A stretch of DNA of 63,542 nt, the filler included, from Atractiella rhizophila (taxonomy: Eukaryota): the NCBI GenBank assembly GCA_021432655.1. It is 7 parts of 5 records of this genome, joined end to end, with 100 filler letters (N's around TTAATTAATTAA, not from the genome) between each part and the next. Parts side by side here need not be neighbours in the genome. Positions count along the whole stretch, not along the records: positions 22,828 to 35,248 come from MU271190.1; 6 more parts are not named here. One strand, 5' to 3'. Within the stretch, counting starts at the first letter, position 1. Each line of letters opens with the position of its first letter. Of the stretch, positions 20,686 to 60,811 are shown piece after piece. A program made the translations under genes and the position numbers. The notes beneath the pieces are model-generated. The model worked only from the letters and a program-made list of their open reading frames with translations, was not told the DNA's origin and made no database searches.

Positions 20686-22727
20686 TCAAGAAGCAAGCTT
20701 AAGATTCGATAATCTAACGACGAGTGCGAGAAGCGCAAGGTTTTCTGACGACGCGAAATATGTGACCATGTCAAGATGAACCTTTGAATGACGATTGAAG
20801 TTACTTTCGAAACGATCGCTGCACCAAAATCAGACATCAGGACGACCAGCAGGAAGAGCGGCATCAGTGTCAGGGACAGACTTACAGGAAGTCTATTTCT
20901 TTCGTAATCGAGACCTTGGTGTGGTCCCCATCTGCTTGTTCCAACAAATGCATAGCTTCATCGAGCGCCTTTCGAAATTTGGCGTGGTAGGAGACGAAGA
21001 GTGCACAAGTGTGCATGATTTTGCTATGGCACTGTTATTGTCATCTTCGATCAGCTTCCTCTGTAACGCTGAAGCAGGAGAGGAAACCACAAACCTTCAA
21101 CAGCTTCGGATTTGTCAACATGCACTCCTTGAGACAAGTGTCTAAAAAGTCTACATGCGCTCTCAAAAGCTCATCGACGGTCTCCACCTTTTCGAGTTTC
21201 ATCTCCAATGCTCTCCAATTAGGTTCCAAGACCTCTCCAGCGCAGAAGGAGTACATTTGTTGGATGAAGGTGAGCATTCTTGATCTCAGCGAGAACACGC
21301 GACTCTTCCACCGCTCGAGTTGAGGATGGTTCGTCTTTCGTCGCCATACGGGGAGTTTTGCATGGTCTAGCCAGGTCAAGATGAGGGATTGCTCGAGATG
21401 CTTCAGTTGCAAGAGGTGACGGAATATCAGCTGATAGCGGAGGACGTTCTTGCGAGAGATGACGAGCGAGAGGGGGAATTTGACACTGTAATCGAGGGTA
21501 AGGGCGTCCACGCCTGATTTTCGCTCAGAAATGTTGGATCACAGGGGGCACAGAGACATACCGGTGAGTGCAGCTTTATCCGTCTCTTCTTGTTTCTTGT
21601 CCTCAAAACCTCCATCCCCAACCTCAAGTCCTCCCTCCTCTCCCATTCCACTCACGCTCACGACCTTCATCAGCCAATCGAAGAGAGTCGTTTGGCTCAT
21701 GTCCACCTTCACGTCATCCTTGTAAGGATCGCTATATGACGCGCTTGACGGATTCCGAATCGCAATGTCCAGCAGAGACTGAAGTTTCTCGATCGAGACT
21801 TGCCGAACCTTCTTCGTCAGTTCAGGTGCCGCAAGATCGAGAAAGTGATTGAAGGTGTCTCCTGGATCGAGGAAGAAGTAGTGTTTCATTGACCTGAGAA
21901 CAAGGTCAGCATTCCCAAGGCTAAAAGAATGCAGAGAAGTATACCGTAAGCGAGGCACGAGCTGTTGATCGTTTAGCAACAATTTGAGGAGCGCGCGATT
22001 GGCGTGGCTGTATGCTTGATCGATTCGCTTATAAAAGCTGCAAGCAAATGAGCGCTCGCTTCTTAAGATCCACAAGAAAAGACGCACCTCTCACTATCCA
22101 TCGCGATAAGCTCATGTCTTTCCTCTCTCTCCTTCTTGCTTTCTCTCCTCTTCTTATCCGCTGCTTCCGTCGTCACAGGCGGCGGCTGCTCTTTCTTCTG
22201 TTCCTCCTCCTCCTCCGACACAGAAACCGACATCCCACACTCTCTCACAACGTTCAGATACTTGCCAGCGAGGAGAACCTTGGTCTTCCACCCCTCCAAA
22301 AACGGTGGGATGACTGCACCACCCGAAAGTCCTTGTTCCCTCGCAGACGCCAGAGGATTCGAAGAGGCAGCAGGAGGAGCGGTTGGGGCATTCGAGACGT
22401 TTGCGTCCTTCAGAGTGTATCGACGTTCCCAATACTCATCCGTGTAATCCATCTCGAGCGTTCCCCTCGTTATATTCTTGTTCTCTCTCACCAAGAACTC
22501 GTCGTACGGATCGTCTAGGTGTCCGGTGCCGACCCACTTCAGGAGCATCCTAGCGTACGGTTGGGAGGCTTTGAGGAGGAGGTTGGAGTATATCGCCACG
22601 GCTGTCGGGTCTCCGGAATGGTATGACAATAGTTGAGAAATGACGGTGAGGACCTCTCCTCCAGTAACGGGTCCCGAACGCGCTCCGGGACCAGCTCCAT
22701 TCTTCGCCTTCTCTCCCTTCTTCGCCA
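20686..22727 (-). CDS. SPC97: gamma-tubulin complex component GCP2 (Spc97/Alp4), 5'-partial at scaffold end
   Basis: G.LDDPYDEF, DYTDEYWERRYTL, KVLLAGKYLNVVRECG, LDYSVKFPLSLVISRK..RYQLIFRHLL, HVDFLDTCLKECML; stop at 20686-20688. Confidence 0.9.
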
Positions 22728-22827
22728 NNNNNNNNNNNNNNNNNNNNNNNNNNNNNNNNNNNNNNNNNNNNTTAATTAATTAANNNNNNNNNNNNNNNNN
22801 NNNNNNNNNNNNNNNNNNNNNNNNNNN
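22728..22827. other. artificial scaffold linker
   Basis: N run + TTAATTAATTAA (stops in six frames) + N run, 100 nt in total. Confidence 0.97.
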
Positions 22828-22927
22828 TTGAGGGAATCCTTTTGGGACGCGTTGCCCGCTAACTTCGACTGTTGGTCTAGTACGTGATATCTAGGTTTTA
22901 CATTCGGCAATATTTCCTGATTGATTG

Positions 22928-23293
22928 TCAAACTCCTTTTCTTCGAAATGTGACGAGTTCACTTGCCTTGTATAACTGTTCCATAAACCCTTTCATGGAG
23001 TTTTCATTTTGCCAATGTCTTTTGTCGAACTCCACTCTTTCACACAGCTTTCTGTAAAGACGCTTCAACTTCGGGCGCAGACCAATAACGTGGATTGGAG
23101 GAGATTCGGCCGCGATGCGGCTACTGAGCTGCTGCCAGTGATGAGGTGCCACACGCTTATAGTCGTAAACTCGTTTGTTTGGGGTGAACCCTCGATAGTC
23201 TGCCTTCCTCTTGGAAGGAGCCCGGGGAGGAGCAGTGGCATCTGACGCAGGAGGCGGAGCGATAAGCCTCTCTTCCTGGGTGCCTTCTGCCAT
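22928..23293 (-). CDS. hypothetical protein (121 aa ORF)
   Basis: ATG-initiated ORF with protein-like composition; no family recognised. Confidence 0.3.
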   Translation of the reverse strand: MAEGTQEERLIAPPPASDATAPPRAPSKRKADYRGFTPNKRVYDYKRVAPHHWQQLSSRIAAESPPIHVIGLRPKLKRLYRKLCERVEFDKRHWQNENSMKGFMEQLYKASELVTFRRKGV

Positions 23294-24133
23294 GGAGGTT
23301 GTTGTCTACCCCTTCGCGCTTGTTGGTTTGATAAAGCCACCTTCCTCTAAAGATGCCGATCATTGTTGTTGTTGTGATCATATTTATATTTCAGAGCGCC
23401 CAGACTAGAATCAACGGAGCTCTGCATTTGCGGACACAATCAAAGAATTTTGATTAAAGAGGTGGCCTGAAGCAAGGAACTAAGAGTGAGAAGTCATGTG
23501 TGCATAGATTGCATAGATCAAGATGTAGGTAAAAGTGTTAAAGGCCTCCGTGTCCCCTTGGACTTGGATAGATGGAAAAGGAAGAAAGTGCTAAACGGAG
23601 GTGTGTCGTAAGTCGCGATGATAATGATAATGTTGAATGTGATTAGGGTTACCAAGGTTCGATCCTGCTCTCCTTGTCCTCCATTCCCTCTCCGCCTTCC
23701 TACTGTCTATGCGCTCTTCTGATCCATAGAGTGAATTGAATCATCACCATCATCATGCGCACACGTGACTTCGCTGAGCGCCGATGTACACCTTGAAGCT
23801 ACAAGCTGGACAATTATTGCTGGACAATTATTGTAAAAGTTATGGTCGAAGGTGAAAGCAAGGTTTTTTTGAGTTCAACCTTCCCTGGAATTGAAGTACT
23901 GTTCAGTTTGATTTAATCGATGATCATGAACATTGCTGCAGTTTGCGTGGTAAAGATTGTGACAGCGATGGAACACATGATGATTTGAAGGTGGAAAGGA
24001 CGGCACGACAGAAAAAAAGCGACAATAAGTCAGTAATAGCCAACGAAGTTGTTGATTCAGTCTTTTCGTACAGCTTTCATGTATTAAGAGATGGAGGATG
24101 CAACGCGAACATAGGCGACAAACGGTTAAGGTC

Positions 24134-25189
24134 TTACCACCGGAGAAAGCCACCACTTTGGCGATGACCAACGGGAACAGGCGGGGAACCCACGGCAGGC
24201 AGTTGAGATGGAGAAGGCATGCTCCTTCTCGAAAGATTTACATCTGGGAAAGCATTGGGCCGGAACCTCAGGAGGACCTTGCCATCAGCTTGCTGGAGAT
24301 CGAACACGCCTCCTCCATTCTCTGGTGTTCCTTCGATCTGAGTCGATTGGCAGATTTCGGCAATTGTAACTCCTTGTGCTGCAGAATCCGGAAACATTTG
24401 AAGGAACAATGGGAAGACGTCTTGAACGGAGATAAAATCGTTCGCGCTGGACCCTGGTCGATCTCTCAACGTCTGACAGACCATCCTTGTCCGATCTCGA
24501 ATGATGCTTCCTCGTGTGAACTGTGGTTGTGGAAGCGCCGAAGGGCTTGGGTCCCAGACGTTCTGGGAGAAAGTAGATGTCCCCCTGGAGCTTGAAGGAA
24601 CTATTTCGTCGTCGTCAGCTAGGGCTTTGCTGCCCAAGACTTGAGGAGGAGGGCTGTATGATCGGAGGCTTGGGGTTCGAGAGTGAGGTCCTGTAGAGGG
24701 TCCATCTTCCTCATCTTTCCCATTGGGTCGGCCAACACCGATCGAAGTGACCCGTCCACCATCATCTGCAACCGAATGACGTTTCTGTGTTCCACTTCCA
24801 ATTGGTGCAATGGGAGCAACGGGACCGATAGGACTGGGCCGGTGTTCACTGACGCGAGAAGAGGAGGGAATGACCTGCGAGTCGAGATTCAGCGAAGCAA
24901 GTGATCCTGCAAAGCCGCCGTTTGGATGCGACATCGTTGGAGACGGTTGACCGATAGGAGCCAACGGCGCTCCCGGCGCTCGAGAGGATGATCCGATCGG
25001 CGGAGGCACCATTCGTTGCAATGGAGCAACTTGGGCTGCTGGAGAGCTGAGGAATTGCTGAGGAATTGGTAAAGGACTGCTCATTCCACCGATTGCCCCA
25101 ACAGGCCCAGGATGGGGAAGATGAGGAATATGCGGAAGTGACATGCGTTGTGGCATCCCTTCCATGGGGAATGCGGCGCTGATGCCCAT
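24134..25189 (-). CDS. NST1-like stress-response protein, C-terminal part
   Basis: Pro-rich ORF with repeated PIG/PIAPIG and SPPPQVLGSKALADDDE, recalled as typical of fungal Nst1 C-termini; not joined in frame to an upstream core. Confidence 0.5.
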   Translation of the reverse strand: MGISAAFPMEGMPQRMSLPHIPHLPHPGPVGAIGGMSSPLPIPQQFLSSPAAQVAPLQRMVPPPIGSSSRAPGAPLAPIGQPSPTMSHPNGGFAGSLASLNLDSQVIPSSSRVSEHRPSPIGPVAPIAPIGSGTQKRHSVADDGGRVTSIGVGRPNGKDEEDGPSTGPHSRTPSLRSYSPPPQVLGSKALADDDEIVPSSSRGTSTFSQNVWDPSPSALPQPQFTRGSIIRDRTRMVCQTLRDRPGSSANDFISVQDVFPLFLQMFPDSAAQGVTIAEICQSTQIEGTPENGGGVFDLQQADGKVLLRFRPNAFPDVNLSRRSMPSPSQLPAVGSPPVPVGHRQSGGFLRW

Positions 25190-26822
25190 AGGAGCCGCAG
25201 ATCATACTACTTCTCCTCCTTCTCCTTCTTCTTCTTCTGCATACGGGAACAGAAGATAAGGTAACAAACGTCGATTGACAACAAGCGTCATACTACTGCT
25301 ACTTCTGGTCAACCTCCTTCTCCCCTTTTTCGCTCGGTACCCACCGTACTCCCTCTCCCTGCTCCTATACCACAAGCCCTAGTGTTATTCTCCATTCATT
25401 GGGTAGGGAGAGGGGTAAGCTTGTCAGATATCTCGAGTAGCGAGCGCGAAGGGGGGAAAGACGTGTGAGGTTTAGCCGCGATTAGAGCAAAAGGGCGGGG
25501 GAGAAAGGGAAGAGTTGGAGAGAGAAACGCTTAATGCAGTTTCCTCTGTATGAATGTCACCGTCTGCTTGAGGAAGTCTTAGTTCCGGTTTTCAAGGAGC
25601 TCTACTACCTCAGGGAACGCCTCGCTTCCTACGTCTCCCTCGCTCTCTCGCGACTCGCTATACTTCGTGTCGTCTCCGAACTCCTCCTGCTCCTACTGAT
25701 ACTACTGCTCCTACTTCTCCCCCTACTCCTAGCTCTCTCGCTGCTTCTCCTGCTACCGCTACTAAACCTACTCTATTTGCTTGCGCTAGCGCGGCTTCTA
25801 CCCTCCTCCTACAAGGTCCAGAAACGGCGGTCCTACGAACTCGTCTCCCAGGAGTTACGGATAGCACTCTTCCGCGCGTAAGGGGTTAAGTACCTTCAGG
25901 TGATAACTGCTCAATCCTGAGATCCAGCGCGTTCTTTCTGTCGTTGTCGAGGAAGCTCTAGAACTTCTTCTCCTTTCCGACAGCAACCTTGCACTTCGGT
26001 TTTTCGTCTTCCTACGGGTTTTCTTCTTTCTATTCTTTTTCAGACAGTGCAGCGAAGGATTGGGACGCATTACGACTGATGTCCCACACCGTCTGACGTT
26101 TTCGTCTTTGAGCTCCTTCTTTTCAAAGCCTTTCTGCGGCTTGCGTAGCGACTCCTTCTTCGACGATTTGAACTTCGGCTTTTGTTTCGACTTCTCCTTG
26201 CGGCAGCACGCCTTCTGGAAGCGAACTTTTCTCTCTTACTCGCTTTCGTCTTTCTTCGACTCTTCTACGCTTTCCTTCTTCTCTCCTTCTTCGCACAACT
26301 CCTTCTCCGCTTCTTCTTTGCGCTTTTCCTCCTCGCGCAATTCCAACTCTCCCTTAACTTCCGTTTCTCCCGTTTCCTCCTTCGCCTCTTCTCCCGATTC
26401 CTTCTCTTCCTCTCCTTCCTCTCCCTTCTCCTTCTTTTCTTCTAGTCCCTAGTTTTCCGATTCCTTCTTGCGCTTCGATCTCTCTTCCTTCTTTTCCTCT
26501 TTTTCCTGCGACGACTTGCGCTCGCGTAACGCTTCCTCTTTCGGCGCTTTCAACGCGTTTTCGTCGTTTTCTGGCGAGGTGGAGCTGGAGGAGATCGGTC
26601 ATTTCGACCGTCACATGGACCATACGGGTTCGGGGGACGAGGACGAGGACGAGGACGAGGATGAGGAGGATTTCCTGTTCCTGGTTAGGGTAGTAGCGGC
26701 TTGCCTCAGCGACCAGGAAGGTTTGGGGAAAGGAGGGTTCGGGAGGTGGGGAGGCTCGTCCCGGCAGCGTTGGTGCCGTCGGCGTTTGAGTCGGCGAAGG
26801 AGGACCTTAACCTGCTGGTGGC

Positions 26823-27816
26823 NNNNNNNNNNNNNNNNNNNNNNNNNNNNNNNNNNNNNNNNNNNNNNNNNNNNNNNNNNNNNNNNNNNNNNNNNNNNNN
26901 NNNNNNNNNNNNNNNNNNNNNNNNNNNNNNNNNNNNNNNNNNNNNNNNNNNNNNNNNNNNNNNNNNNNNNNNNNNNNNNNNNNNNNNNNNNNNNNNNNNN
27001 NNNNNNNNNNNNNNNNNNNNNNNNNNNNNNNNNNNNNNNNNNNNNNNNNNNNNNNNNNNNNNNNNNNNNNNNNNNNNNNNNNNNNNNNNNNNNNNNNNNN
27101 NNNNNNNNNNNNNNNNNNNNNNNNNNNNNNNNNNNNNNNNNNNNNNNNNNNNNNNNNNNNNNNNNNNNNNNNNNNNNNNNNNNNNNNNNNNNNNNNNNNN
27201 NNNNNNNNNNNNNNNNNNNNNNNNNNNNNNNNNNNNNNNNNNNNNNNNNNNNNNNNNNNNNNNNNNNNNNNNNNNNNNNNNNNNNNNNNNNNNNNNNNNN
27301 NNNNNNNNNNNNNNNNNNNNNNNNNNNNNNNNNNNNNNNNNNNNNNNNNNNNNNNNNNNNNNNNNNNNNNNNNNNNNNNNNNNNNNNNNNNNNNNNNNNN
27401 NNNNNNNNNNNNNNNNNNNNNNNNNNNNNNNNNNNNNNNNNNNNNNNNNNNNNNNNNNNNNNNNNNNNNNNNNNNNNNNNNNNNNNNNNNNNNNNNNNNN
27501 NNNNNNNNNNNNNNNNNNNNNNNNNNNNNNNNNNNNNNNNNNNNNNNNNNNNNNNNNNNNNNNNNNNNNNNNNNNNNNNNNNNNNNNNNNNNNNNNNNNN
27601 NNNNNNNNNNNNNNNNNNNNNNNNNNNNNNNNNNNNNNNNNNNNNNNNNNNNNNNNNNNNNNNNNNNNNNNNNNNNNNNNNNNNNNNNNNNNNNNNNNNN
27701 NNNNNNNNNNNNNNNNNNNNNNNNNNNNNNNNNNNNNNNNNNNNNNNNNNNNNNNNNNNNNNNNNNNNNNNNNNNNNNNNNNNNNNNNNNNNNNNNNNNN
27801 NNNNNNNNNNNNNNNN
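26823..27816. other. assembly gap
   Basis: Run of N. Confidence 0.99.
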
Positions 27817-28680
27817 AACTAGCTTTCGAGCTTGGTCTCGCTTGTCGCGTGCTTGTTGAATGGCCAGGGAGAGTGCAATTTCCTGTTCAGAGGGATTCTG
27901 GAGGGAGGAAAGAGATGACCAATTGGATTCCACCACTCTTGCGAGGGTGGCGGCAGCCACATCTACTCCTTCTGGAGGAGCTTGTCCATTTGCCGTCGCT
28001 GGATATCCGTTGATTGTCGCGGCGAGGGGCAGAGCGGACTTGATGAAACTTTTCCAGTTGGCAGGGAGGGAGGTCCAATAGCTCTCATCGTCTCCTTCCT
28101 CGCCTTCTCTCCGTGGCATCTGCACCCCCTTGGGCATGGGGATATCCCCACGCTCCTTCTCCCGCCACCCATCTCCAAGCGCTTCCTTTGCGGCGGTCTC
28201 GATTTGGCGATAAAGTTCGTCGGCGGTCTTGAGAAGTTCGAAGTTTGGAGTGCCGTCGGTGTGGAGGAGGTGAGCAGGATTAGTGTGTACGAGGGGAGAT
28301 TGAGCGAGTTTTGACATTATTGTCTCGAGAGGAAAGCGGAGGGGCGGAGAGTTCGGAGGGGGAGATGGAAGTGAATCGGGGTGGGGAGGAAAGGCGTGAG
28401 AAAGAGGCGAAGTGGGATACTTCTCGGCGCGCGTCGTACGTCATTAACACGACCACCAGACATCCCATAGACAAGAGAGACTCACGACATGATTAGGGTC
28501 TGTGTCTTCCTCCTCGTGGCCCAAAGGCGTGCCATTTGGGATGGCTGTCGCGGTTGGGGGTGAAGTCGGATTTGGAGTTACGGGGTGGGAGTCGGACGAC
28601 TCTTGAGCACTAGCCTTGCCCTTTTTCTTCTTGTTCTTCTTCTTAGAAGAGTTTGCAGCTGGATGGTTTGTCGGTTGCAT
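27817..28680 (-). CDS. NST1-like protein, N-terminal part
   Basis: MQPTNHPAANSSKKKNKKKKGK start and ADELYRQ...ESYWTSLPANWKSFIK, resembling basidiomycete Nst1 N-termini; runs into the gap. Confidence 0.5.
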
Positions 28681-29469
28681 GTTGGCCAGATCGTTAATCG
28701 TCAAATTTCGATGTTGGTTGGGAGTCTCCTTCTCTAAGCACCGCAATCAACCTTCCTCAACATTCATTGACTTTCATCATCCTAAGGAACAACCAAGCCT
28801 GGAAATGGAAAGGCACTGAAATATGAACACCTACTGCGACCGCGACTGCCCTCCCCGAGCGTCCATTAAGACGATGCAGATGTCTAGGGATCACGTTCAC
28901 TTGTAACAAGCGAGTCTCCGTGCACGCTATCGCTCCAAGGCTGAATCCCTTGAGTCTGCCCCTGAAGGTGGCCAACGGTTGTAGATATAGGAGTCTATTT
29001 GTAAAGTTTTGCGAGGAAGAGTGGGACAATGAAGAGTCAATCAAAGACTTCACGAAGCGAAGTGAGTGCAGGATGCATCTTGTTCCCGAAGGTCTGACGT
29101 TGAACTTCAGGAGATTTTGCCTACTTCGCCATCGAGATAACACGTAGTGGATGTACTACTTCAGTTATGCGGTAACCTCACACCGAACAGACGCACTCAA
29201 AATAAAACCTTTGGTGACGTCCAGCAAATTTGAAGCGATCGCCGCATATTCCAGAGCAACCTGTGTTGTGGTTGTGGAAGCCAAGACAAGGCAGGGTCAA
29301 GCCTTACATGAAAGAGGCAGCTGAGTCCGGGCATTGTCTACGCGCTCGCGGCGAGATCTCGCGACTTTCTGGAATCTCATACTCCTCAACAGGACAGCAT
29401 CGGAATCGTAAGCAACAGAGGTGCCTTTCAGCTCCACATTCAAGGGTGGTGCGATGTTTACTGAAGCAA

Positions 29470-29899
29470 AGAGATCATTGGCAGCTCCACAGACTTCGAC
29501 GACGGTACGTCACTCCCTGTAGCTGAAGACGGATATGAAACAGACATCCAACTTGCCAAATGATATGGGATCGATGGGGTGCCTCTTTTCGTCTGTTTCT
29601 CTCCGACTTCATCAACCCAAATCGTTTCCGCGTTCGCGGTACTCCTTACCTTCGCTCATACACCAGTAATTATCACTGCACTTATTCAAATCTTCATGTT
29701 CACATCCGGAAATGGATCGTCCACGAATGCTTATCAATGGGCCGTAAACAGTCCCTTCGGGGTTTTCATCTCCTTCGATTTAACTGGAGGGAACTGGGGT
29801 TATGGGACAGGCAAGTTCTGGAGTTCCCTGAACACCTGGTTCAGAAGCTGTTCTGCGTCTCCTGGTACTTTGCCAGGGGGAGGGGGTTGCACAGGGTAG
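29470..29899 (+). pseudogene. degenerate GH71 (alpha-1,3-glucanase)-like remnant
   Basis: Reads DGYETDIQLAK*YGIDG then AYQWAVNSPFGVFISFD, matching the GH71 DI..A...GIDG and K.FISFD motifs; internal TGA and early termination. Confidence 0.4.
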
Positions 29900-29990
29900 G
29901 CTGGAGTCTGCGATCGTCGTCGTGCGCGGCGGACATGCAAATTCCGCGTGTTACGCCGCCTAGAATAGACGAAAGAGGTCATGATTAATC

Positions 29991-30520
29991 AAAATCAGGC
30001 TTTGTAGGGCTCCAGAGCCAGCCTTAGTGCAGGTTGAAATTTTCCTCTTGGCTACAAGAAAGAGTGATGATAATACGGTTCACTCATGTTCACTCAAGTT
30101 CAAGTTCGCTCTTAGCTTCCCAACGTTAATTGTTCACACTGCCCCACTCATGCATGGACCAGACGACTTTCTTCTCGTGTAGAAGGCAATTTGTTGAAGA
30201 ATGAAATTCATTATTTTCAATTATCATGTCCAGAACTTCGTTAGCCCAAAGGCTGAAAATCAGGCTTTGTAGGGCTCCAGAGCCAGCCTTAGTGCAGGTT
30301 GAAATTTTCCTCTTGGCTACAAGAAAGAGTGATGATAATACGGTTCACTCATGTTCACTCAAGTTCAAGTTCGCTCTTAGCTTCCCAACGTTAATTGTTC
30401 ACACTGCCCCACTCATGCATGGACCAGACGACTTTCTTCTCGTGTAGAAGGCAATTTGTTGAAGAATGAAATTCATTATTTTCAATTATCATGTCCAGAA
30501 CTTCGTTAGCCCAAAGGCTG
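29991..30520. repeat. tandem duplication, 2 x 265 bp
   Basis: 29991-30255 and 30256-30520 appear identical by eye. Confidence 0.92.
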
Positions 30521-30590
30521 AAAGGCACTGTGCTCTTCGTCTAAATACTTTAAGTCGAACTGATCATGACATCAAGAGTCGGCCCACCGA

Positions 30591-30965
30591 TCAATCTGAG
30601 GGCTGAATCAGCATGCTCAGCCTCCCCTTTGCCTGCTCGCACTCCTGCATGACTGCATTGTACCTAACTGCCTTTGCCGGTGCTAAAGCTTCATCATTCA
30701 TGGATGCTGCCGCCGCCCCATCTCCTTGTTGCTCCAATGTTCGCGAAATTGCACAAAGACAGTCGATGAAGGATTCATAGACTTCAAGCTCCTGAGAGAT
30801 TGAAGCTGCTTCTCCGAGTTGATGGAGAGCTGATGCATATTCACCACGCGAGCAAGTGATTGTACCGAGATGAATAGTGCACATGGCTTGGTTCAGCCGG
30901 TCTTGTATCCCAACAAAAGTACGGTTCGCTTTCAAGGTCCGGCGCCGTCTGTCATCTCTTTCCAC
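30591..30965 (-). pseudogene. isolated TPR-like C-terminal fragment
   Basis: QAMCTIHLGTI...GEYASALHQLGEAASI...DCLCAISRTLEQQGDGAAA helical TPR pattern; no upstream partner domain. Confidence 0.5.
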
Positions 30966-33083
30966 GTTTTATCTTGTAAGGCCCGTTCCATTTCTCCTCG
31001 AACGTAGTCCTGAGATTGAAACAGATTCCATGCTTTCTGCTGGTCAATGAGCTTCATCTCCGCCACTTTCAACGCCCTTGCGGCTGTATCATCCAGCTCC
31101 ATCCCAGCGAACCTCTTCTGGAATTGTTTCAGCGGGTCCATCCGTTTATCATCCAACACAAACCCCGGCTCTTCATCCTCTTTGGTTTTAGTTGTATCAT
31201 CGAGCACCACTTGGAATCTGACAGCCGCAGTTAGCGTGTTGAGCAGACTGTCGAGGAGGAGTTGCAGTTGAAGAGGGATCACTTTCAAATCTTCTGCCTG
31301 CCCCGTTTATCAAACCGAACTTTGACAAGTAGGCATCTTGGTCATTTTCCTTGCAGTCGAAGGTTTTGAGGTACGACCTTCGCTCTTGTTCTGTCAATCG
31401 AAGTGAACCACGATTCAAGATTACCCAAAGGAGGACGTAAATGAAGGATTCAATGTCGTCGGCAACACAATGTTTCAGCCTAGGTTTTTATATGAGTCGA
31501 AGGGACAAGAATTGATAAGTGCCCTAATTTCCACTTAGTTGAAATTGTAGCGGATATGGGCTAATGTTCGCGCTTACAGTTCGTTCGGGCAGCTGCGCCG
31601 ACAATTTGTCGTTGTCCTTTGCTAACTCCCAGTCTATAAGCATTCCTCGCGCTTCACCATCTTCGGTTCGTAACAATAGTACGTTCCCAACAGAGACATC
31701 TCGATGTAGCAAGTTAGCGTACTGGACAGCCTGCTGATGTGCTGAAATTCATGTCCATGTCACTCATTGTGAGGAGAAGAAGGGGAAACAAACCTGTGAA
31801 AGCATCGAACAGAACCTTAACCAGTTCCCAACTCGACTTAAAGGTGGACAGTGGCTCTCCAACCTCGTTCAGGACAATCCTTTAATGTTTCATTCTGGCC
31901 CCATTCGCTCCAGTCGCTTCCTGCAAAGGATTCTTGGTCTCAACGTCCTGATCAGCGAAAACCGTGGCGATATTTTGACTTTGCTCTCGTGCAGACGGTG
32001 ATATATGGTTCCTTCCTTCTCGTACTCCATCTTGCGCCATGTATCCTTCAGCAACACAATTTCCTTGCTTCTTGGCGCATAGGCGTGGTAACATTTTGTT
32101 CCACGTCCAACCGCCCACAAACGGCTGCTGGCGAAGGGCTGAGAGATATAGAAGCTGTCCCTGTCCACTAAAACCTTGAAAAGAGGAGCGCTGCCTTCCA
32201 GCTGCAAAGGAATTTCTCGCTGCTTCTGCGAAAGGATCATCGCTGGATCGGATGAAAGTGATATCATAGCCTCGTCGTTCGGGGGGAGCGTGAGTGTAGC
32301 GGTCGATGTAATCGGACAATGAATTATCAAACCTGACATCGAACGTTTGAGACACTTTTGATCCGGCGCGAGAGTGAACGATGAGGCGTGCAAGGACGCC
32401 ATGGAGAGAAAAGGAGAAGACACGAGTACAGTGTTGCAACCCCTGGATAACGGTGTTGTAAATGGTAATTTGACCTCGAATTTCTCGTGCAACTTTAGAA
32501 TCGCGTTCGAAAGGGGAGCATTTGGAGTTGAAGGAATCCGTTACTTTCTCTGTCTTGAGCTCTGCAAACATATCCACATCGCGCATACTGTTTCCTTCCA
32601 CCGCGACCGCTTCCGCCGAATACAACACCAGGTCAGGTTTCACAGCAGTACAGTTGTAAACAGGATGTATTGTTTTGTCGGGGAGCATAGACGTGTCGAC
32701 CCAGTGCCAATCGCGAGCGAGGTAGCGGTCTAAGCCAGTGATCTACGCTGCTTCTCAACCTGGCCCAACCCCAGTTCTGAAACACTAACCACTTGAGAAC
32801 CTAGTTCGTTGTTATTGGAGACTGGTATTGAGATTTCGAGCGGGCGAGGAGCAGGCCGTGATTCTGAGTAACTCTTGGGAACAGGGAGCATGTCAAGAAT
32901 TTCCTTCACAGAAACCTCCGAGTCTTCGAACTTACGGACATCGCGCACTGCAAGTACATAGGCATGCTCAGCATTAGACGACAAGGAGAAAGGTGCGGTA
33001 GCGTTGTCTGAGTGGCTGGGCAGTGTGCTGGGAAGCTTTAGTAACCTGTTCGACGTGGACCGATTCGAGGTGGATGTGGGCAT
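30932..33083 (-). pseudogene. FunK1 (fungal-type) protein kinase pseudogene
   Basis: KPD, ELK, GQI, GRGT, LKDTW, LHRDVSVGNVLL, LIDWEL, GTYQF, DDIESF motifs. Compensating frameshifts near 32207 and 31975; TAA at 31882-31884 inside H(Y)RIVL; another TAA in LRLI*KP near 31490. Confidence 0.85.
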
Positions 33084-33650
33084 GATCGTGGGACTCTGGC
33101 TCGTTGCTCGCTGATCGAGACCATCTCAGGTTAGGGTTGAGAAGAGAAGACAATTGCACAACGAACAGCAGGAGGCAACTACCTAATGTTATGGTCCTCA
33201 TTTTCACGTAGCGGGTGAGAGTCGAGTTAATTTTGTCTTTTGCTGAAGACGTCTCTTCGTCTGTGAGATCTCGTGCCAAGTCAGTCAAGGGACCTTCAGA
33301 TGAAGTTACTTCCAGTCACGATCCATCCTCCATAGGCATTGATATTGAATATTGAATAAAGTAGTGAGAAACGCCTCTTCTTTGGCCTCATCATGATCAT
33401 GAGATACCACTGGCTTCTGTTTGCAAATTGAACAAGGCAAGACCTCCTAGCCCCCACTCTAATTTCGACAAGTGAACGTTGCCTCCACGTTCATACCGTC
33501 GAGTCAATCGTGAGTGCTTCGGCATCCTTGTCTCAAGGTGTTAGTAGTTATGGTGGCTCAGTTGGTAAGCGTCATATCAATCCTTAAGGACAGACTGTTA
33601 TTCAAAGCGAAAAAGAAAAAGATCAGTAGTCAGTTCTGCATAATCATTTC

Positions 33651-35214
33651 TCATGCCACCAACTTGAACCTGAGATCGCGTCGGATACGAGCCAACATTT
33701 CCATATCATGATCGGGAAGGATCAGCTGTCCATCGACCGCACCATCTGGTCGCCACAACCCCGGACCCCTGTTCACATTCATGGGATATCGCACTTCCCC
33801 AGTCTTCCCTGCCCAGTCAAAGTCCACTAGCATGAATTGCTTTCCATCCAGCGACACCAGGATGTTTGACTCCCGAATGTCACCATGAACATAATGTTGT
33901 TGGTGCAATTCGGTCAACTTGCTTTCGATCGTATCCATCAGCGCTGAAGTTGGCGTCACCTCAGGCTGGTAAAGCTCCATGTATTCCTCTGGCCGCAACC
34001 GATCCATGACTACCATCTTCCATCCACCTGAAAGCTCTTCGAAACCTCGAAGCTTTGGTGCAAGCCCGCGGGAAGCGCATTCCAGATGAACCTCTCTCGA
34101 ATAGTGACGAACAAACTTGACACAAAGTTCTTGTTCCAATTGGTTGCAAAAGAAGACAAGTTTTTTTGGGTGAGGCTGTAACGCGTATTCAAAGTCCAGG
34201 GGGTTCCCTCCGTTGAGGGGAGTGAAAGTTGTTGGATATGGATACAGTTGTAGCTGACGTGTCGACAATCGTGGGCCGTCGGTTTGGGAGAGGCCGCGAT
34301 AGTAGCGATCCAAGGCACTGATAGTCGTTCTGAATGCCCCGAGATGGCAAGCCAACTTCCTTCGTACATTCGTGTCCGTAAGGTGGTGGTGCAGTGGCAG
34401 AGTAAAGGATAAGCTCTGGACAATTGGACGCAAATTCCACACCGCACCAGCAAATGCGATATAAGGGCCTATGCGAACCGTGAGACTGAGTTAGCAAGGT
34501 ATCCAAACAATGAACTAATGCAACTGACCAAAGATAAAGACTAGCATGCAGGGCAAAGCCGAGTCTGGCAGTTTAACTGCATAGTCTCTCGTCGACTCGA
34601 GATAGTATAAAATGCCTTGGGCGTATGGCTCAGCGCCGCTATTTCCGATTTCATTCTTGAACTCGGCAATGGTGCAGCGCAAACCTCTCCCGGATATATC
34701 GCCATCTGTGCGGTATTGTTTTATGTCGCTCGGGATGAGATGAATACCGTGATTTGCGAAAATGTCGTGAATTGCTTCCGCACGACGGTCTTCATTCGGA
34801 TAGAAATCTGACACGGCGGAGCATAGCTCTCTCGCAAGAGCGTTGTCTTCCAGGGTCACTTCGTGACTCTCGCACTTGTCGAGAAACGTCCCGAAAACAG
34901 GATGTAGGAGTGTTGGCGGAATCGTTGCCGCGGCAGTCTCAGGGCGGTTGCAATATATCATCGTATTGGGATGACTCTGGCGATTCATGAAAGCTTCAAG
35001 CTTCCCTGCGGTGGATGGCCGTTCGCTTGGGTTGGTTTCCAGAAAAGCGCGTCTCTGCGCTCCGACATCAAGTTGCTCAAGGGAATGCTCGTTCGAAAGA
35101 GGCTCGACGCGTAATCGCACTAAATAGGTTGGTTGACGAGGGTTCAGTATCCGAAACGACGGCCAAGAGAGACAGCTCACAAGAGCGAGGAGCATCGATG
35201 AGGATATGAATATG
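33651..35214 (-). CDS. Crinkler-like REase-fold + protein kinase gene, 5'-truncated by telomere
   Basis: Spliced (introns 35120-35180 and about 34469-34527): HIHILIDAP...TDGD...IAEFKNEIG...PYAQG..YY (PD-(D/E)xK-like) ...VKFV...APKL...VHGDIRESNILV...LVDFDWAG...YP. No in-frame ATG upstream of the first exon before the telomere. Confidence 0.8.
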
Positions 35215-35215
35215 G

Positions 35216-35248
35216 TTCGGGTTAGGGTTAGGGTTAGGGTTAGGGTTA
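35216..35248 (+). repeat. telomeric repeat tract TTCGGG(TTAGGG)4TTA
   Basis: G-rich strand runs 5'-3' to the very end of the scaffold, which is the correct telomere polarity. Confidence 0.85.
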
Positions 35249-35348
35249 NNNNNNNNNNNNNNNNNNNNNNNNNNNNNNNNNNNNNNNNNNNNTTAATTAA
35301 TTAANNNNNNNNNNNNNNNNNNNNNNNNNNNNNNNNNNNNNNNNNNNN
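35249..35348. other. artificial scaffold linker
   Basis: N-TTAATTAATTAA-N, 100 nt. Confidence 0.97.
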
Positions 35349-37656: not shown

Positions 37657-40600
37657 CTAGAGTCTGAGACCCAATCCAATCTCTTTCCCAATTAAGCGCA
37701 AACACTCAATGATGAGCTCCTTGGAACCTAAATTATCCAGACCGCTTCCTCCTCTGTTCCTTTCCGCTTCGAGTGGCCAAGGACGGCCAATCAGGCCAGG
37801 AGTGGTGACATCCTTCGGAAATCCTTTCGGCAAAAATCCATCAGAGACAACCAACTTTTTCGTGAGTCGATATGGCACAACGACTGCTGGCGGAGGAGCA
37901 AGGCTGAGATCCGTTTCGTGCGACTCGAGGATTTCGCAGAAATGTGGATAAAAGTAGTACATGTGCGCGCGAGTGCTTGTTGAGAGATTGGCAGCCACAT
38001 TCAGTTTGAGTCTTTGAGCAAAGGTTTCTAGTGATCATGGTTAATACTTCGGTTATCAAAACAGTGAATGAACTTACCTTTCTCCTTAACTACACCATCA
38101 GAACTATCGTCGGTGGATGCGAATGCCGTAGAGTAGGTCCCCTCTTCCAACTTCAGCGAAAGAAGGCAGCGCAACGTGTAAAGTAGTTCTTCCTCGCGCA
38201 ACCTATCGCAACAGTTAGCTATGAGGCCGTTTGAAGTCGCCAAGTTTAGAAACAAACCGGTTCATTGGCATTCTGCCCTGGAGCGCGACATCCGCAATGT
38301 AAGTCCTGATTGTTAGGGCAGCTCGACTAATGAGGGAAGGTAGGATGAGCGCAGCAGTTCGTCGAGCGAGCAGGTCGATCTCTTCACCTACTGCTCATTA
38401 ATGACTATTTTTGCAAATGATGGAATAAATGGAGACAAACCATCCTTCCGCTTCGCTGAACACATGAAGAAGAGAAGGTCGAAACACCAGTATTCAAAGC
38501 GTTCCCTAGGGCGTGGTGATACGTCACGAGTTGTGCCAAAAATGTCACCCTGGACTTGATGGTAAACATTCCTATCGAAACGACTCTCCTTCCTCGGCTC
38601 CAAATCTTCATCTGAAGAAGCTGAATCGATAGCCGTCATGGGGGACTCAAGGGTGTACAGTCGGCTGCTCTCTTGAAGGCAGTCGCCGAGACGTTGAATA
38701 ACGACTGGAGGCACAAGCGGGTTATGGATGAACGGGAAGACATCCCGCTCTAAAGAAGCAAGAAGACAGAGGTCGAAATTTTCTTCTTCTTGTTGTTGAG
38801 AAAGTGGGAGAGTGGTGACAGCATGACTGATAAAAAATCTGATTTATCAGGCAACGGAGTAAACAATAGGCGCACCAGTCAGCAAGGATCGCTCCTCTGA
38901 AAGACTCAATCAGCTGCCTCCATATCCCTTGAAATGTCTCGGTTGGCACTAGAACAATATGAGTGAACAAGCTACGATGTTCGACGAGCAAGCAATACCG
39001 TTATCAAGTCTTGCTAACGCAGGAAGGGAGACTTTGACAACTTGCAGGAAGCAAATTGTTGCGGTCTTCCACAGAGGAGGGTCATTTCCGAATTTCGAAG
39101 GCGATGGGCAGTCATATTTCAACCGGAGAGGAATTGAGAAAGCCTGTCTAAACATTTCAACGATTAATTGAGAAAAGCTTGACGGCTCACAGAATATAAG
39201 CGCTCCAATGCTCCGTCCTGAAATACGGCCAAGTCACTTCTATGCTGTTCGAACAGGTGTACTACTTTCGGCATAACTTTCTTCGAAAGGCAAACATAGG
39301 ATATGTGCATTGACGAGTTCCTTCCTTCCGCTATCGACGCATCAAATGGGGCAATGTATGCCAGTGACATGTATTCAGCAAGATCCGTTAAGACAGCAGA
39401 TGCAGCTTCCGGGACGGACAAATCGATGTGTTCCACAGACTCCAAAACCGATGATTGAACGGGAGATAGAGAATCTACATCCGGGCGGTAGTCGAGTGAT
39501 CGGGTATGAGTTAAAGTGGCTTTCAGAATGACGAGTAATCGCTTGATTCGGGATAAATCGAAAGAAAATACGACTGAGGACTGGAGAGATTGGATTGACT
39601 GAACAAAGGCTTCCAGCTGAAGCTGTGAATATCGCAATTCATCTCCTTTGTGCGCCGGAACAATCATTTCCCCAATTTCTGCAAGCGCTTCCCAGGCGGT
39701 AGTCCATGCAAGTGCAAGAACATCCTTATCAGCAGCCTCAGAGGGCTGGATTGTAAGAATTTTTCCAAAACCCTTCATTGATGCTGTTGCAACAGGAGAA
39801 CGGTCGGCGATGAAAGATTTTTTTGTCTGAGCGACAAACGAGTCCCATATCGCAGAAAATCTAGAAGAACGGATAAGCTTGCTGAGGAGGAAGTCGTCGA
39901 TCAACTGGCAGATCGAAGTCAAGGCAAGTGTCTTGGAATCGTCCCACTGTTTCGCGACGAGTGGGATGGGTCGACCACCCGCCTGTGCTACCATGGGAAG
40001 TGTAGATGGGACAACCTGGACGGCGACTTCTTCTGTAACCATTGAAACTGCCTCAGTGACCCCATCGAGGAGAGGGAAGATGATGTCAAAGAGGCACTCC
40101 TCCCAACTCTGCTCGTTCAAAGTGCCGCCGTACATGGAAACTGTGCGAAAGAGTGTTTGCATCGCTCCATCTCTAACCTCCTGTCGCGAATCTTGGCACA
40201 TCTGACCTAGTTGATGTAGGAGGAACATCCAAAGACGCTCGTATCCGTGTTTATCGTCGATCGACTTGTTCTTTTCAACTTGAAGGTGGTCGGCAACCTG
40301 CCAAAGGAGACCACCAGCCTATTTGCGATAATGTTAGTTGCGCTGTTACAAGAACGTAAACGCGTACCGTCAGAGCGACATTGACATCGTCTCCTTGTTT
40401 GCCAAAGTCGGACAATGTAGAAACACAGAGCTTAAGTTCGGAGACGGTAAGAACGCCCAGGAACTCGGTACAAATAAGCTGGAGAGAAGGAAAACTTGTT
40501 CTGACCAGGACCGAGCTTTTTGAGGAAGAAGTGCCAGAGGCAGTAGTCGACGACAAGCTAACTGTGGAGAGGGTGCGTCCTCGTATAGGGGGAGCCTCGT

Positions 40601-43600
40601 CATTTTCTGGAATATCCACCTGCTTCTCCTTTTCCCTGTGTTGTCTGAAGGAGTGGGCGGATGGCGGTGGACAAGCCATACTGAGAATGTTGAAAATCTT
40701 TTCCCATCCGGCAATAAACGACTCGCCATTCGTTTCTAAGATGTTGAACATAGTCTCAAGTGCCATTCTTCTAATCTCAAAATCTGTTGAAGTTTGCGAA
40801 AGGTGTGGTGGTTCTGCTTGATCGTGGATGGCTTGAAGGATTTGAGTCTGGATACGACGTCGGAGGTCCTCTGGCGCATTTGCAACATTCTTTGAAGCAG
40901 CAACAAGGATTTTATCTAGCACTTCTCCAGCTTGCAATCGAACATCCGACGATGCCTGAGAATAATGCTGAACTGATAGAAGATGACATGTGGCGATATC
41001 CCATCCCACGTTCGCGTCACGATAAACCATACGATGACCATTGAGCATCGAAACAGACCCTAGTTTCGAAATCGCGAAGGACCTCTCACCCGCTTTCATG
41101 GCCTTTACGGTATTAAGGCCGCTGATCCTTCGTCTCATGGAGGAAGCGCTGGTCAAAGCGGTGGAAGAGAGTTCCTCTGTTGAAGCATCTGTAGGGCTCT
41201 TCGCACCTGTTGACAAGTGGTCCTCAAGATACTGGGACCCGTCCTCATTCATCTGAAACCCTACCATCTCCCCACTCAATCGGCACAAGGCGCCTAGGAA
41301 CCACCGAAACGCAGAGTCGTCCAGATTCCTTGAAGTTTCGAAGAGCCGTGAGATAGAAGCTTGCATTGCTTGTTCTTCGACTTCAGAAGGAGTTGCATTC
41401 TTGATTGCCAGGGAGCCCGATGTTGGAGAAGCGGGCATAGTGGTCGTTTGTCTGGCGGGTACAGAAGAGCCGGTTCCCGTCCTCTTCATTGCTTTCGATC
41501 GTGCGCTGTTTGTTCTGATAACCTGATCGGCATTCTGAAGGGTCTCGAACACAGAAAACCAAGTGTTGTTCAAGCTTCCAGCTAAGTATTGAGCGACCGC
41601 CAACAGGCTTTTGAGAGTCGCAAAATTTCTCTGGCTAAGGCCAATAGGGCCAGCCGGTCCAGGTCCCAATCCTAATGCATCGACGCTGAGGACGCTGGCA
41701 GCTTTCGCAGGGGCGGATTCCAACGATGCAACGTATGACACGATCGCGTGGGGTACAGCGAATCGGCATATCGAAGTAAGGAAAGCATCTCGGGGGGTGA
41801 TGAGGTTCAAGACTCCGCAAACATTGCAAAAGTTTTGCAAGGATTGGAGGACTTCAAAGAAGAGGTGGTCGTCGAGATTCGTCGTCATGAAGAAAGATAG
41901 AGACGCCAGGATGGCTGGCCATCCCGCATTCGCCATGTTCATCACCAGCTTAAGCTCGCGCGTCCTTGGATCTTCGGGTGGCAGGGAATCAAGCTCCAGC
42001 GCTGGTGGTGCTTTATTAGATGTCGATGCTGAAACTTCGCCAGAATCCCCTGACGTTCTTCGGGCACGAGAAGCTATTATGGACGAGTACGTGGGTAACG
42101 CGAATTGTGCGAATCCCTCAGCGATAGACGTAATGCATTGCGTCGCGAGGTAAAAGACGTATGTGTCTGGCATTCCTGGTGCTTCTGCTTTATCGAGTTG
42201 ATCGATGCTATTCCCAGCTTGGTTTCAGTTGTGAGTTAATATTTTGAAGTGAGGAACGGACCATTGAACCTTCACTTGACTGTTTGACATGCTCAATCCA
42301 GGCTTTTCAGCCGCCGTTCCGGTCGTCACAGTCGTCGCTGCAGCAGTGGCTGCCTGGGTTGCAATCTCCATTACACCTCCCAATACATCCACCGCAGCTC
42401 CAGTGACACCACCAATGCTAGAACCGGCGGTACTCGCGGAATGGGCAGGTATTGGTCCATTGGAAGTTCCATACAGAACTTGGGTCCCAGTTCCAAGGAT
42501 GGCAGGACGTTCGGATGCCAACCGATGGAAACTTGTAAGAAGAGATTGAAATATTGGCGCAGGTTTCGCAGGTAAATTTTCTTCGTTGGCATTTAGAGAA
42601 TATCCTTGGGATTCGTCGTAGTCGTAGCGTTCGTAAATTTTCTTCATCAGCTCAAAATCAATACAGAGTGCTCGGAAGATTTCGAGGGTCAAGATCCTCA
42701 GCCAGGCAGGGCTACTCCCTATGCCTCCTCCCTCTGAACTGCCTATAGGATGACCTCCTGAACCGTCGACGGCGTTGTTTTCGCCAGGTTGAATGACACG
42801 GATAAACATCCTGAGGAACATCTCTGCTTCCACTTGGAGCTCTCCGGAAAACTGCTTAAGGAGGATAAATATGACACGCATCAAACGAAGCGTGAGCGCA
42901 AACGTGTAGGACTTGTCAGTTGACGAGGATGGTAGGGACAGCAGGCGAATAAGGAGGGGGCAAAGATGTGATCGGAGAAGGAACAAGAGTTCTCGATGCT
43001 ATCAAAGTACTAAGCTTTGCTTCTGTCAAGATGAACTAACAAGTACCTTCTTGAAAAGACTTCCATAGTTGGTCAAAATGCTTTCCAACAGTTCGAGTCC
43101 AAATGTCTTAGGAAGACTGGACAGTTTGATGAACTCTGCTTCTTCTCCGTCTCCATTAACGAGAGAACACAGGTCAGAGAAGACGAAATAGCCATCTCTG
43201 GCTGCAGGATACAGATCCACGTTTATAAGCTCTTCGGAAGGTGAGGACGGTGGTACCGTCACTGAAAAGCCTGTAGGAAGCGTCGTCGAGTCCACTTATC
43301 TGCCGTGTTAGATCGTGTCGAAAAGCAGCACGAGAAGGATTGCAAACCTCCACCATGTTCAAGGGCAATGTCTTCTTCTACGACGGCATCGAAAACAAAC
43401 ATAGTGAGCTGTCGGAGAGTAGCAGCAGCAGTAGAAGACACAGCTCCAATTTTCGATTCCTGAAGCCTAAAACAAAGCAACAGAGACTTTGCTCGATGGC
43501 CCAGTCTTAATTCATACCATATGTTGTGAAAAGAGCTAACGAACCTCAGCTAGCATTTCTCCGCCAACTCTGCCCCTCCTCCTTCCTCCTGCAGTTACTC

Positions 43601-44000: not shown

Positions 44001-44100
44001 NNNNNNNNNNNNNNNNNNNNNNNNNNNNNNNNNNNNNNNNNNNNTTAATTAATTAANNNNNNNNNNNNNNNNNNNNNNNNNNNNNNNNNNNNNNNNNNNN
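44001..44100. other. artificial scaffold linker
   Basis: N-TTAATTAATTAA-N, 100 nt. Confidence 0.97.
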
Positions 44101-44670: not shown

Positions 44671-45590
44671 NNNNNNNNNNNNNNNNNNNNNNNNNNNNNN
44701 NNNNNNNNNNNNNNNNNNNNNNNNNNNNNNNNNNNNNNNNNNNNNNNNNNNNNNNNNNNNNNNNNNNNNNNNNNNNNNNNNNNNNNNNNNNNNNNNNNNN
44801 NNNNNNNNNNNNNNNNNNNNNNNNNNNNNNNNNNNNNNNNNNNNNNNNNNNNNNNNNNNNNNNNNNNNNNNNNNNNNNNNNNNNNNNNNNNNNNNNNNNN
44901 NNNNNNNNNNNNNNNNNNNNNNNNNNNNNNNNNNNNNNNNNNNNNNNNNNNNNNNNNNNNNNNNNNNNNNNNNNNNNNNNNNNNNNNNNNNNNNNNNNNN
45001 NNNNNNNNNNNNNNNNNNNNNNNNNNNNNNNNNNNNNNNNNNNNNNNNNNNNNNNNNNNNNNNNNNNNNNNNNNNNNNNNNNNNNNNNNNNNNNNNNNNN
45101 NNNNNNNNNNNNNNNNNNNNNNNNNNNNNNNNNNNNNNNNNNNNNNNNNNNNNNNNNNNNNNNNNNNNNNNNNNNNNNNNNNNNNNNNNNNNNNNNNNNN
45201 NNNNNNNNNNNNNNNNNNNNNNNNNNNNNNNNNNNNNNNNNNNNNNNNNNNNNNNNNNNNNNNNNNNNNNNNNNNNNNNNNNNNNNNNNNNNNNNNNNNN
45301 NNNNNNNNNNNNNNNNNNNNNNNNNNNNNNNNNNNNNNNNNNNNNNNNNNNNNNNNNNNNNNNNNNNNNNNNNNNNNNNNNNNNNNNNNNNNNNNNNNNN
45401 NNNNNNNNNNNNNNNNNNNNNNNNNNNNNNNNNNNNNNNNNNNNNNNNNNNNNNNNNNNNNNNNNNNNNNNNNNNNNNNNNNNNNNNNNNNNNNNNNNNN
45501 NNNNNNNNNNNNNNNNNNNNNNNNNNNNNNNNNNNNNNNNNNNNNNNNNNNNNNNNNNNNNNNNNNNNNNNNNNNNNNNNNNNNNNNNNN
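44671..45590. other. assembly gap (should contain the CYP51 3' end)
   Basis: Run of N. Confidence 0.99.
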
Positions 45591-47958: not shown

Positions 47959-48827
47959 ATGCCAGCAGCAACTGTAAGTTTCCACTTAACAGTTTATACC
48001 ACCGTGCCTGAAAGCGATGACGCAGAAGAAACCATTTCTCCTGTTCGATTGCGATAATACCCTAGGTACATAGATGTTCCTTGTTGACTGATTAGCCAAT
48101 GTGCTGAGATCCATCGTGCTTAGTTCTTTCCGAAGAGCTCGCTTTCGAAGGCTGCGCAGACCTAATCAACCAAATCCTCGATTCAAAATCCATCACTCCA
48201 CCAGGCGGTCCCTACACCGGTCCACAACTCATCAGCGACTTTGTCGGGCAAAATTTTCGGGGTATGCTCAATTCGATGCAATCGCTACACAACTTTCAGC
48301 GCTCGGACGAAGAGATGGAGTCGTACGTCAAGCAAGAGGAGGACGTGGTGATTGCCAAGTTGGAGGCGAAGGCTCAGCCGTGTGTTGGAGTTATGGAGGT
48401 GTTGGAGAAGATCCAGAAATCGGGCAAGTTTGCAGGGTTGGCAGTTGTCTCCTCATCGGCAAAACGAAGGGTCCTCGCTTCCATCAGAAAGACCAAACAG
48501 GACATCTATTTCCCTGAAGCCCACGTCTATTCCGCCGCCTCCTCTCTCCCAAAACCGACTTCTAAGCCTGATCCCGCCATCTACAATTTTGCTTGTAAAG
48601 AGCTAGGCGTAGAGCCAAAGGACGCTATTGCAATTGAGGACAGCAAGTCGGGAACGTTGAGCGCGGTGAGAGCTGGGATTCCGACACTGGGCTATGTGGG
48701 CCCTTATGAGGACAATAAGAAGGAGGAGATGAGAACGACCCTCAGGACTGCTGGGGCGGGAGAGATTTTGGACGAATGGGATTGGGATGCATTTTTGGAC
48801 AAGATCCAGAAGCTGGAGAGAAATTAA
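47959..48827 (+). CDS. HAD-superfamily hydrolase (CbbY/phosphatase-like)
   Basis: LLFDCDNTL motif I, VVSSS motif II, KPDPAIY, IEDSKSG motif IV. Confidence 0.88.
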
Positions 48828-56769: not shown

Positions 56770-57324
56770 NNNNNNNNNNNNNNNNNNNNNNNNNNNNNNN
56801 NNNNNNNNNNNNNNNNNNNNNNNNNNNNNNNNNNNNNNNNNNNNNNNNNNNNNNNNNNNNNNNNNNNNNNNNNNNNNNNNNNNNNNNNNNNNNNNNNNNN
56901 NNNNNNNNNNNNNNNNNNNNNNNNNNNNNNNNNNNNNNNNNNNNNNNNNNNNNNNNNNNNNNNNNNNNNNNNNNNNNNNNNNNNNNNNNNNNNNNNNNNN
57001 NNNNNNNNNNNNNNNNNNNNNNNNNNNNNNNNNNNNNNNNNNNNNNNNNNNNNNNNNNNNNNNNNNNNNNNNNNNNNNNNNNNNNNNNNNNNNNNNNNNN
57101 NNNNNNNNNNNNNNNNNNNNNNNNNNNNNNNNNNNNNNNNNNNNNNNNNNNNNNNNNNNNNNNNNNNNNNNNNNNNNNNNNNNNNNNNNNNNNNNNNNNN
57201 NNNNNNNNNNNNNNNNNNNNNNNNNNNNNNNNNNNNNNNNNNNNNNNNNNNNNNNNNNNNNNNNNNNNNNNNNNNNNNNNNNNNNNNNNNNNNNNNNNNN
57301 NNNNNNNNNNNNNNNNNNNNNNNN
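56770..57324. other. assembly gap
   Basis: Run of N. Confidence 0.99.
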
Positions 57325-58043: not shown

Positions 58044-58143
58044 NNNNNNNNNNNNNNNNNNNNNNNNNNNNNNNNNNNNNNNNNNNNTTAATTAATTAAN
58101 NNNNNNNNNNNNNNNNNNNNNNNNNNNNNNNNNNNNNNNNNNN
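58044..58143. other. artificial scaffold linker
   Basis: N-TTAATTAATTAA-N, 100 nt. Confidence 0.97.
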
Positions 58144-60711: not shown

Positions 60712-60811
60712 NNNNNNNNNNNNNNNNNNNNNNNNNNNNNNNNNNNNNNNNNNNNTTAATTAATTAANNNNNNNNNNNNNNNNNNNNNNNNNNNNNNNNN
60801 NNNNNNNNNNN
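60712..60811. other. artificial scaffold linker
   Basis: N-TTAATTAATTAA-N, 100 nt. Confidence 0.97.

Follow-up and report, generated by a model that had tools for sequence, protein, structure and literature searches.

The remnant of a three-exon gene was identified on the minus strand at positions 33651-35217 of the window (the whole stretch of DNA analysed, 63,542 nucleotides), directly abutting a TTAGGG tract. It comprises codons 97-577, or the 3' five-sixths, of an Atractiella rhizophila gene (or one of a very close relative) whose product has a Crinkler header followed by an REase-like and a kinase-like part. The explanation we favour, and consider moderately probable, is that telomerase healed a terminal deletion at a GGTT seed, leaving a promoter-less, otherwise undamaged remnant. 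According to this explanation, the chromosome end would have been lost through breakage or through erosion that reached into the gene, the 3' end thereby exposed (...ATGGTT(CG), resembling GGTTAG) would have served as the seed extended by telomerase, and the new telomere would have stabilised the end. What is left would be a promoter-less, presumably unexpressed remnant and probably a young pseudogene.

Six identical linkers (N44-TTAATTAATTAA-N44) separate the scaffolds in the window, and the sequences flanking a linker are not contiguous in the genome. The gene and the repeat are located together on the scaffold piece 22828-35248, which is 12.4 kb in length and possesses an internal gap of 994 N (Table 1). 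Tandem Repeats Finder reported 5.8 copies of a period of 6 at 35214-35248. Read towards the end of the piece, the order is ...ATATGGTTCGGG, then four perfect TTAGGG units (35222-35245), then TTA, with the variant unit TTCGGG at 35216-35221 ahead of the perfect ones. The perfect repeat amounts to 24 bases, far above the chance expectation for 63.5 kb, and no other run of at least two TTAGGG/CCCTAA units was found in the window. As the tract abuts the linker directly, it lies at the scaffold end, and its G-rich strand runs 5' to 3' in the direction of the end, as it would in a true telomere. TTAGGG is presumably the telomere unit of A. rhizophila, as taken from basidiomycetes in general, and the scaffold end is presumably a physical telomere. 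No more than 35 bases of the tract are assembled. An artefact of assembly or a telomeric repeat in an interstitial position, where the gene would be intact or interrupted and the scaffold merely stopped or mis-joined at a short repeat, is an unlikely source of this arrangement, albeit one to be taken seriously: the repeat units number only 5.8 and the scaffold is short, gapped and set amid a string of small scaffolds, whereas the tract is terminal and oriented as a real end would be.

Table 1. Features of the gene remnant, the terminal tract and their surroundings (positions are those of the window)
Feature	Position	Strand	Description
Exon 1 remnant	35181..35217	-	N97-S108 and first base of L109; 12/12 residues as in P0004
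HIHILIDAP motif	35188..35214	-	H-x-H-phi-phi-phi-x-x-P strand, HVLVxxP equivalent by family alignment and end of Pfam domain
Intron 1	35120..35180	-	61 nt, GTGAGC...TTTAG, phase 1; junction S/L as in P0004 model
Exon 2	34529..35119	-	196 codons; linker and REase-like domain
Exon 2 candidate catalytic residues	D138 34704-34706; ExK 34656-34664	-	P0001 numbering: E109, D138, E152-x-K154
Intron 2	34469..34528	-	60 nt, GTCAGT...CATAG, CTAAC branch-point-like site; junction FG/PY as in P0004
Exon 3	33651..34468	-	271 codons; end of middle domain, kinase-like domain, stop 33651-33653
Kinase motifs in exon 3	HGDIRESN 33864-33887; DFD 33816-33824	-	
ATG	35193-35195	-	Start of a frame that crosses unspliced intron 1 and reaches exon 2 (ORF 34515..35300)
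Junction and seed	35214..35219	+	GGTT (35214-35217) forms codons H98/N97 and is in phase with telomere repeat
Telomere-type tract	35216..35248	+	TTCGGG, 4 perfect TTAGGG, TTA; then linker N44-TTAATTAATTAA-N44
Linkers	22728-22827, 35249-35348, 44001-44100, 58044-58143, 60712-60811, 61868-61967		N44-TTAATTAATTAA-N44
Longer within-scaffold N gaps	26823-27816 (994 N), 44671-45590, 56770-57324		
FunK1-type fungal kinase gene with TPR tail	30591-33125	-	Next gene inward; several frames, introns or frameshifts
Housekeeping-type genes on other scaffolds	15698-19691, 21542-22090, 39167-42998, 48108-48824, 6717-7313		

In the minus-strand frame, the repeat runs into the gene as NPNPNPNPNP-NHIHILIDAPRS, and the 479 codons of the remnant contain neither a stop codon nor a frameshift. 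An earlier note on this DNA had proposed a GT-AG intron of 61 nt behind the first exon; it is a phase-1 intron, leads to an open exon and matches the gene model of P0004, the closest relative described below. The same note had reported the lack of an in-frame upstream ATG, and none was found in the remnant: the ATG listed in Table 1 is out of frame in the spliced gene and in frame with exon 2 only if intron 1 is retained. It is at this ATG (with intron 1 retained) or at an internal Met that translation would start if the remnant were still at work as a header-less nuclease-kinase through cryptic telomere-proximal transcription. We judge this to be improbable; the unspliced frame from the ATG is open into exon 2, yet the ATG is separated from the repeat by only 21 unique bases, too few to hold a promoter. 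Many short database proteins of the family (P0047, P0051, P0053 and P0070) end or turn into nonsense after ...FG, ahead of intron 2. Such entries appear to be exon-level read-throughs, and their ending at FG suggests that the position of intron 2 is widely conserved in the family.

A homologue search with exon 2 as the query among longer proteins gave 38 matches, fungal wherever named. The best match was P0004 (BT69DRAFT_1355087), a hypothetical protein of 577 aa from Atractiella rhizophila encoded on a contig of 40,803 bases. P0004 consists of a Crinkler N-terminal header (residues 6-103, ubiquitin-like domain of Pfam PF20147, E 1.4e-22), an REase-like middle and a kinase-like C-terminus, which bears out the assignment of the gene to the Crinkler family and the expectation that full-length relatives carry a header upstream of HIHILIDAP. 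The window copy and residues 97-577 of P0004 are identical at 472 of the 479 residues compared (98.5%), by exon 12/12 (exon 1), 195/196 (exon 2) and 265/271 (exon 3). The sequence of P0004 is ...FVDPPAS-NHIHILIDAPRS-LRLRVEP...; the window copy is the same from N97 on, with repeat-encoded NPNP before it, and the splice S/L and the sequence NHIHILIDAPRS-L-RLRVEP agree exactly. Since residues 6-103 of P0004 form the Crinkler N domain, nearly the whole header is gone (96 residues missing): of the part ahead of intron 1, only the last 12 residues remain in the window copy, and the PF20147 domain is absent from the remnant. Going by sequence, the gene derives from a Crinkler/CR family member, now without the header domain. 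The repeats start where homology to P0004 stops, in agreement with the earlier claims of a TTAGGG tract that begins inside an exon and of a removed header.

A full-length copy of such identity on another contig may have confused the assembly, which would suit an artefact, but the seven residues that differ from P0004 mark the window copy as a distinct sequence rather than a collapsed duplicate; moreover, neither a second gene copy nor header-coding sequence was found elsewhere in the window by tblastn. Two of the seven differences occur at family-conserved positions (P0004 residues 256 and 329; window 34677-34679 and 34398-34400), where the window copy has the consensus (R in 26/37 and L in 26/35) and P0004 is unusual. 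Non-consensus changes are not in excess in the window copy. This would suit a gene still at work, as would the lack of a header in many database relatives, 22 of the 38 exon-2 matches having no precomputed PF20147, though such header-less entries may be partial gene models. The remnant shows no decay, which suggests that the event was recent. The earlier description of the break as recent is plausible in this light (seven amino-acid differences, no disabling changes), although the event is undated.

P0004 leans towards being a paralog rather than an allele on the other haplotype. No near-identical twin of the neighbouring FunK1-type ORF (31885-32742) was found among proteins of 502-2000 aa, its matches being relatives of 39-72% identity on contigs other than that of P0004, and a second neighbour (24137-25201) had no matches among proteins of 623-2000 aa; both are weak tests.

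At the junction, the sequence is gene-derived with certainty as far as 35217 (the N97 codon), and C35218 is the sole base departing from TTAGGG. Compared at the protein level, homology ends abruptly at N97, and S96 is replaced by a repeat-encoded P. The TTCGGG unit had been claimed to double as the PN codons of the gene. This holds for N97, which is gene-derived and shares GGTT with the repeat, but not for the P, which comes from the repeat, since P0004 has S at that position. C35218 would be gene-derived only if the S96 codon of the intact copy were TCG. The possibility that the repeat is intron sequence of a longer gene was rejected, as the bases before N97 are CG and not an acceptor AG. In-phase seeds of at least 4 nt occur at 27 of 1567 gene positions (1.7%), so that a random join, as in a mis-assembly, would be expected to hit one this rarely; the 4-nt in-phase seed at the junction fits seed-primed addition by telomerase.

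Telomerase healing after terminal truncation is already documented in fungi. For Magnaporthe oryzae, one study reports de novo telomere addition in which 19 of 24 events took place at seeds of 1-4 nt (PMC7367193). As in that chromosome healing, unique sequence is here joined straight to TTAGGG through a short in-phase seed, with all distal sequence lost. Unlike in M. oryzae, the event in A. rhizophila is inferred from one assembled junction, and the sequence affected is neither rDNA nor a telomeric retrotransposon but a gene encoding a protein of an effector-type family. The M. oryzae study describes the TTCGGG unit as marking the 5' ends of MoTeR elements (PMC7367193); no MoTeR-like element is visible at the TTCGGG unit of the window.

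The C-terminus encoded by exon 3 belongs, on sequence comparison, to the protein-kinase-like fold, with putative kinase activity. Exon 3 matches Pfam Pkinase with an E of 7.5e-06 and 26.0 bits, below the cut-off of 31.7, and gives weak matches to kinases in the PDB. A Pkinase match at E <= 0.1 was obtained for 30 of 39 family members, and a family profile searched against the PDB returned twitchin (8.3e-05) and DYRK2 (2.5e-04), with kinases in all of the 60 best rows. For exon 2, no Pfam family was found in the window copy and a sequence search against the PDB gave one chance-level match (E 0.75); Pfam HSDR_N_2 was identified in only 3 of 39 family members, with a best E of 0.035. An alignment of 150 sequences showed conservation of E109 (140/150), D138 (133/148), E152 (130/150) and K154 (132/150). 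With an alignment of 39 sequences, the exon 2 model was of low quality (pLDDT 60.8) and the fold search uninformative. The AlphaFold model from the 150-sequence alignment reached a pLDDT of 91.4 and a pTM of 0.85, and in it D138 immediately precedes one strand, while ExK closes the following one. Foldseek of this confident model against the PDB gave no matches at E <= 0.001. Among its top 14 rows, 11 were cap-snatching endonucleases of bunyaviruses or arenaviruses or the restriction enzyme OkrAI (E 0.55-2.2), all of which we take to be members of the PD-(D/E)xK superfamily. Exon 2 is thus likely to adopt a predicted nuclease fold (REase, PD-(D/E)xK-like). The REase and kinase architecture put forward in the earlier note accordingly finds agreement in the kinase-like C-terminus and the conserved E...D...ExK residues, while its REase fold has no significant structure match. 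The putative nuclease-type and kinase-type catalytic residues are still intact in the remnant. Together with the intactness of both downstream exons this would be expected of a gene that still works, but a young pseudogene would be intact too.

REase and kinase domains make up about one-sixth of CR C-termini and are also the architecture of CRN8 of Phytophthora infestans (PMC5289972). Like these Crinkler/CR (Crinkler-RHS-type) proteins, P0004 has a Crinkler N header ending in an H-x-H-phi-phi-phi-x-x-P strand, followed by the E...D...ExK domain and then the kinase-like domain. It differs in its source, which is a root-associated basidiomycete (Pucciniomycotina) and not an oomycete pathogen, and in the window copy the kinase match stays below the Pfam cut-off (26.0 vs 31.7 bits) and the nuclease domain falls in no Pfam family. 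Unlike CR effectors, the window copy is without a header and would be no translocated effector as it stands. AACRNL, a Crinkler-like protein of free-living eukaryotes, is described as having a degenerate N-terminal domain and an ADP-ribosyltransferase domain (PMC12957317). Both are CR-type C-terminal enzymatic modules without a working header; in the remnant, however, the header is physically truncated rather than degenerated, and the enzymatic domains are different ones.

The break lies between codons 96 and 97, one codon before the H-x-H-I-L-I-x-x-P strand and 1-3 codons upstream of the motif, and consequently the whole motif (H98/H100 to P106) is kept. In the relatives, HIHILIDAP aligns with LHIVVEAP, VHVIVKPP and similar sequences at the last positions of the Pfam Crinkler N profile, and in the family alignment H98-x-H100-I-L-I-D-A-P106 corresponds to the HVLVxxP of oomycetes, a motif of the same type. 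The junction of header and C-terminus is located about 10 codons downstream of the break. The break had been placed exactly at the shuffling site; it lies upstream of it.

A wider proposal is that the DNA of HVLVxxP-type motifs is preferentially broken in CR genes, perhaps by a CR nuclease, and that the end seen here was trapped by telomerase instead of entering header recombination. We regard this as very improbable. The break precedes the extended motif by one codon and the motif end by 10 codons, and the motif is termed a recombination hotspot (PMC5289972). Rearrangement at the level of the header is indicated by the 1-3 tandem headers of family members, P0008 having three Crinkler N matches. 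Against these points, the event is a single one. With breaks placed at random along the roughly 1855 nt of the gene, about 3% would come to lie no more than 30 nt from the motif end, and several other landmarks would have looked just as notable. Other header-less or partial Atractiella copies begin elsewhere (P0006 in mid-header, P0005 after the linker), and the fold of the putative nuclease is without a significant structure match. A literature search retrieved no paper connecting Crinklers with telomere healing. The causal link to breakage at the motif, or to the action of the family's own nuclease, is not supported beyond one event with a chance proximity of about 2-3%. It would be a long shot that CR genes are fragile at the DNA of the header-closing motif, that such ends are usually repaired from other headers, giving rise to domain swapping, and that the locus is a telomerase-captured intermediate; were it so, such an end would keep about 30 nt of motif-coding sequence common to the paralogs and would be a ready substrate for homology-directed repair. 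The position of the break next to the header-closing motif is probably a coincidence, to which the resemblance of GGTT in the N-H codons to the telomere repeat may have contributed.

The next gene inward, of the FunK1 type, has its best relatives among Atractiella proteins (64-72% identical) on other contigs, and no 100% match, as an annotated protein of the window itself would give, was found in the range of 502-2000 aa. A unit of 265 bp is present twice in tandem with 100% identity at 29991-30523, just downstream of this gene; it may reflect a genuine, young duplication or have arisen in the assembly. An interstitial GGTTAGGGTT is located at 33129-33138, with the FunK1-type gene on one side and the Crinkler-type gene, by its 3' end, on the other; as a 10-base match it is within chance for 63 kb. 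The region 25681-26667 is CT-rich and of low complexity, with short tandem arrays of periods 6-27. It adjoins the 994-N gap and lies inside an apparent long minus-strand gene that spans this gap. Other scaffolds of the window encode a class V myosin (head, IQ, DIL), a gamma-tubulin complex component, Mon2, a HAD hydrolase and a class 3 lipase, and with such housekeeping-type genes present the string of scaffolds is not solely repeat or subtelomeric material.

The family with a Crinkler header, a nuclease-like and a kinase-like domain occurs in Atractiella and many Boletales, and comprises 647 representative clusters at E <= 0.001 and 314 at E <= 1e-10. P0008 of Scleroderma citrinum possesses three tandem Crinkler N headers on a single nuclease-like/kinase-like body. 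This triple header and the long N-terminal extensions of several relatives indicate that header duplication is common in the fungal family. Atractiella relatives are also found N-terminally incomplete, as in P0006 and P0005.

One event is insufficient to bear on Crinkler domain shuffling, for which more independent breaks at the same motif would be needed. The locus adds a documented Crinkler-header/nuclease-like/kinase-like family, with members in Atractiella and many Boletales. Provided that the junction is real, it would represent a clean natural case of a break healed by telomerase within a basidiomycete gene that codes for a protein, would identify one of the chromosome ends in the Atractiella rhizophila genome, and would show how an expanded effector-type family loses members at such ends.
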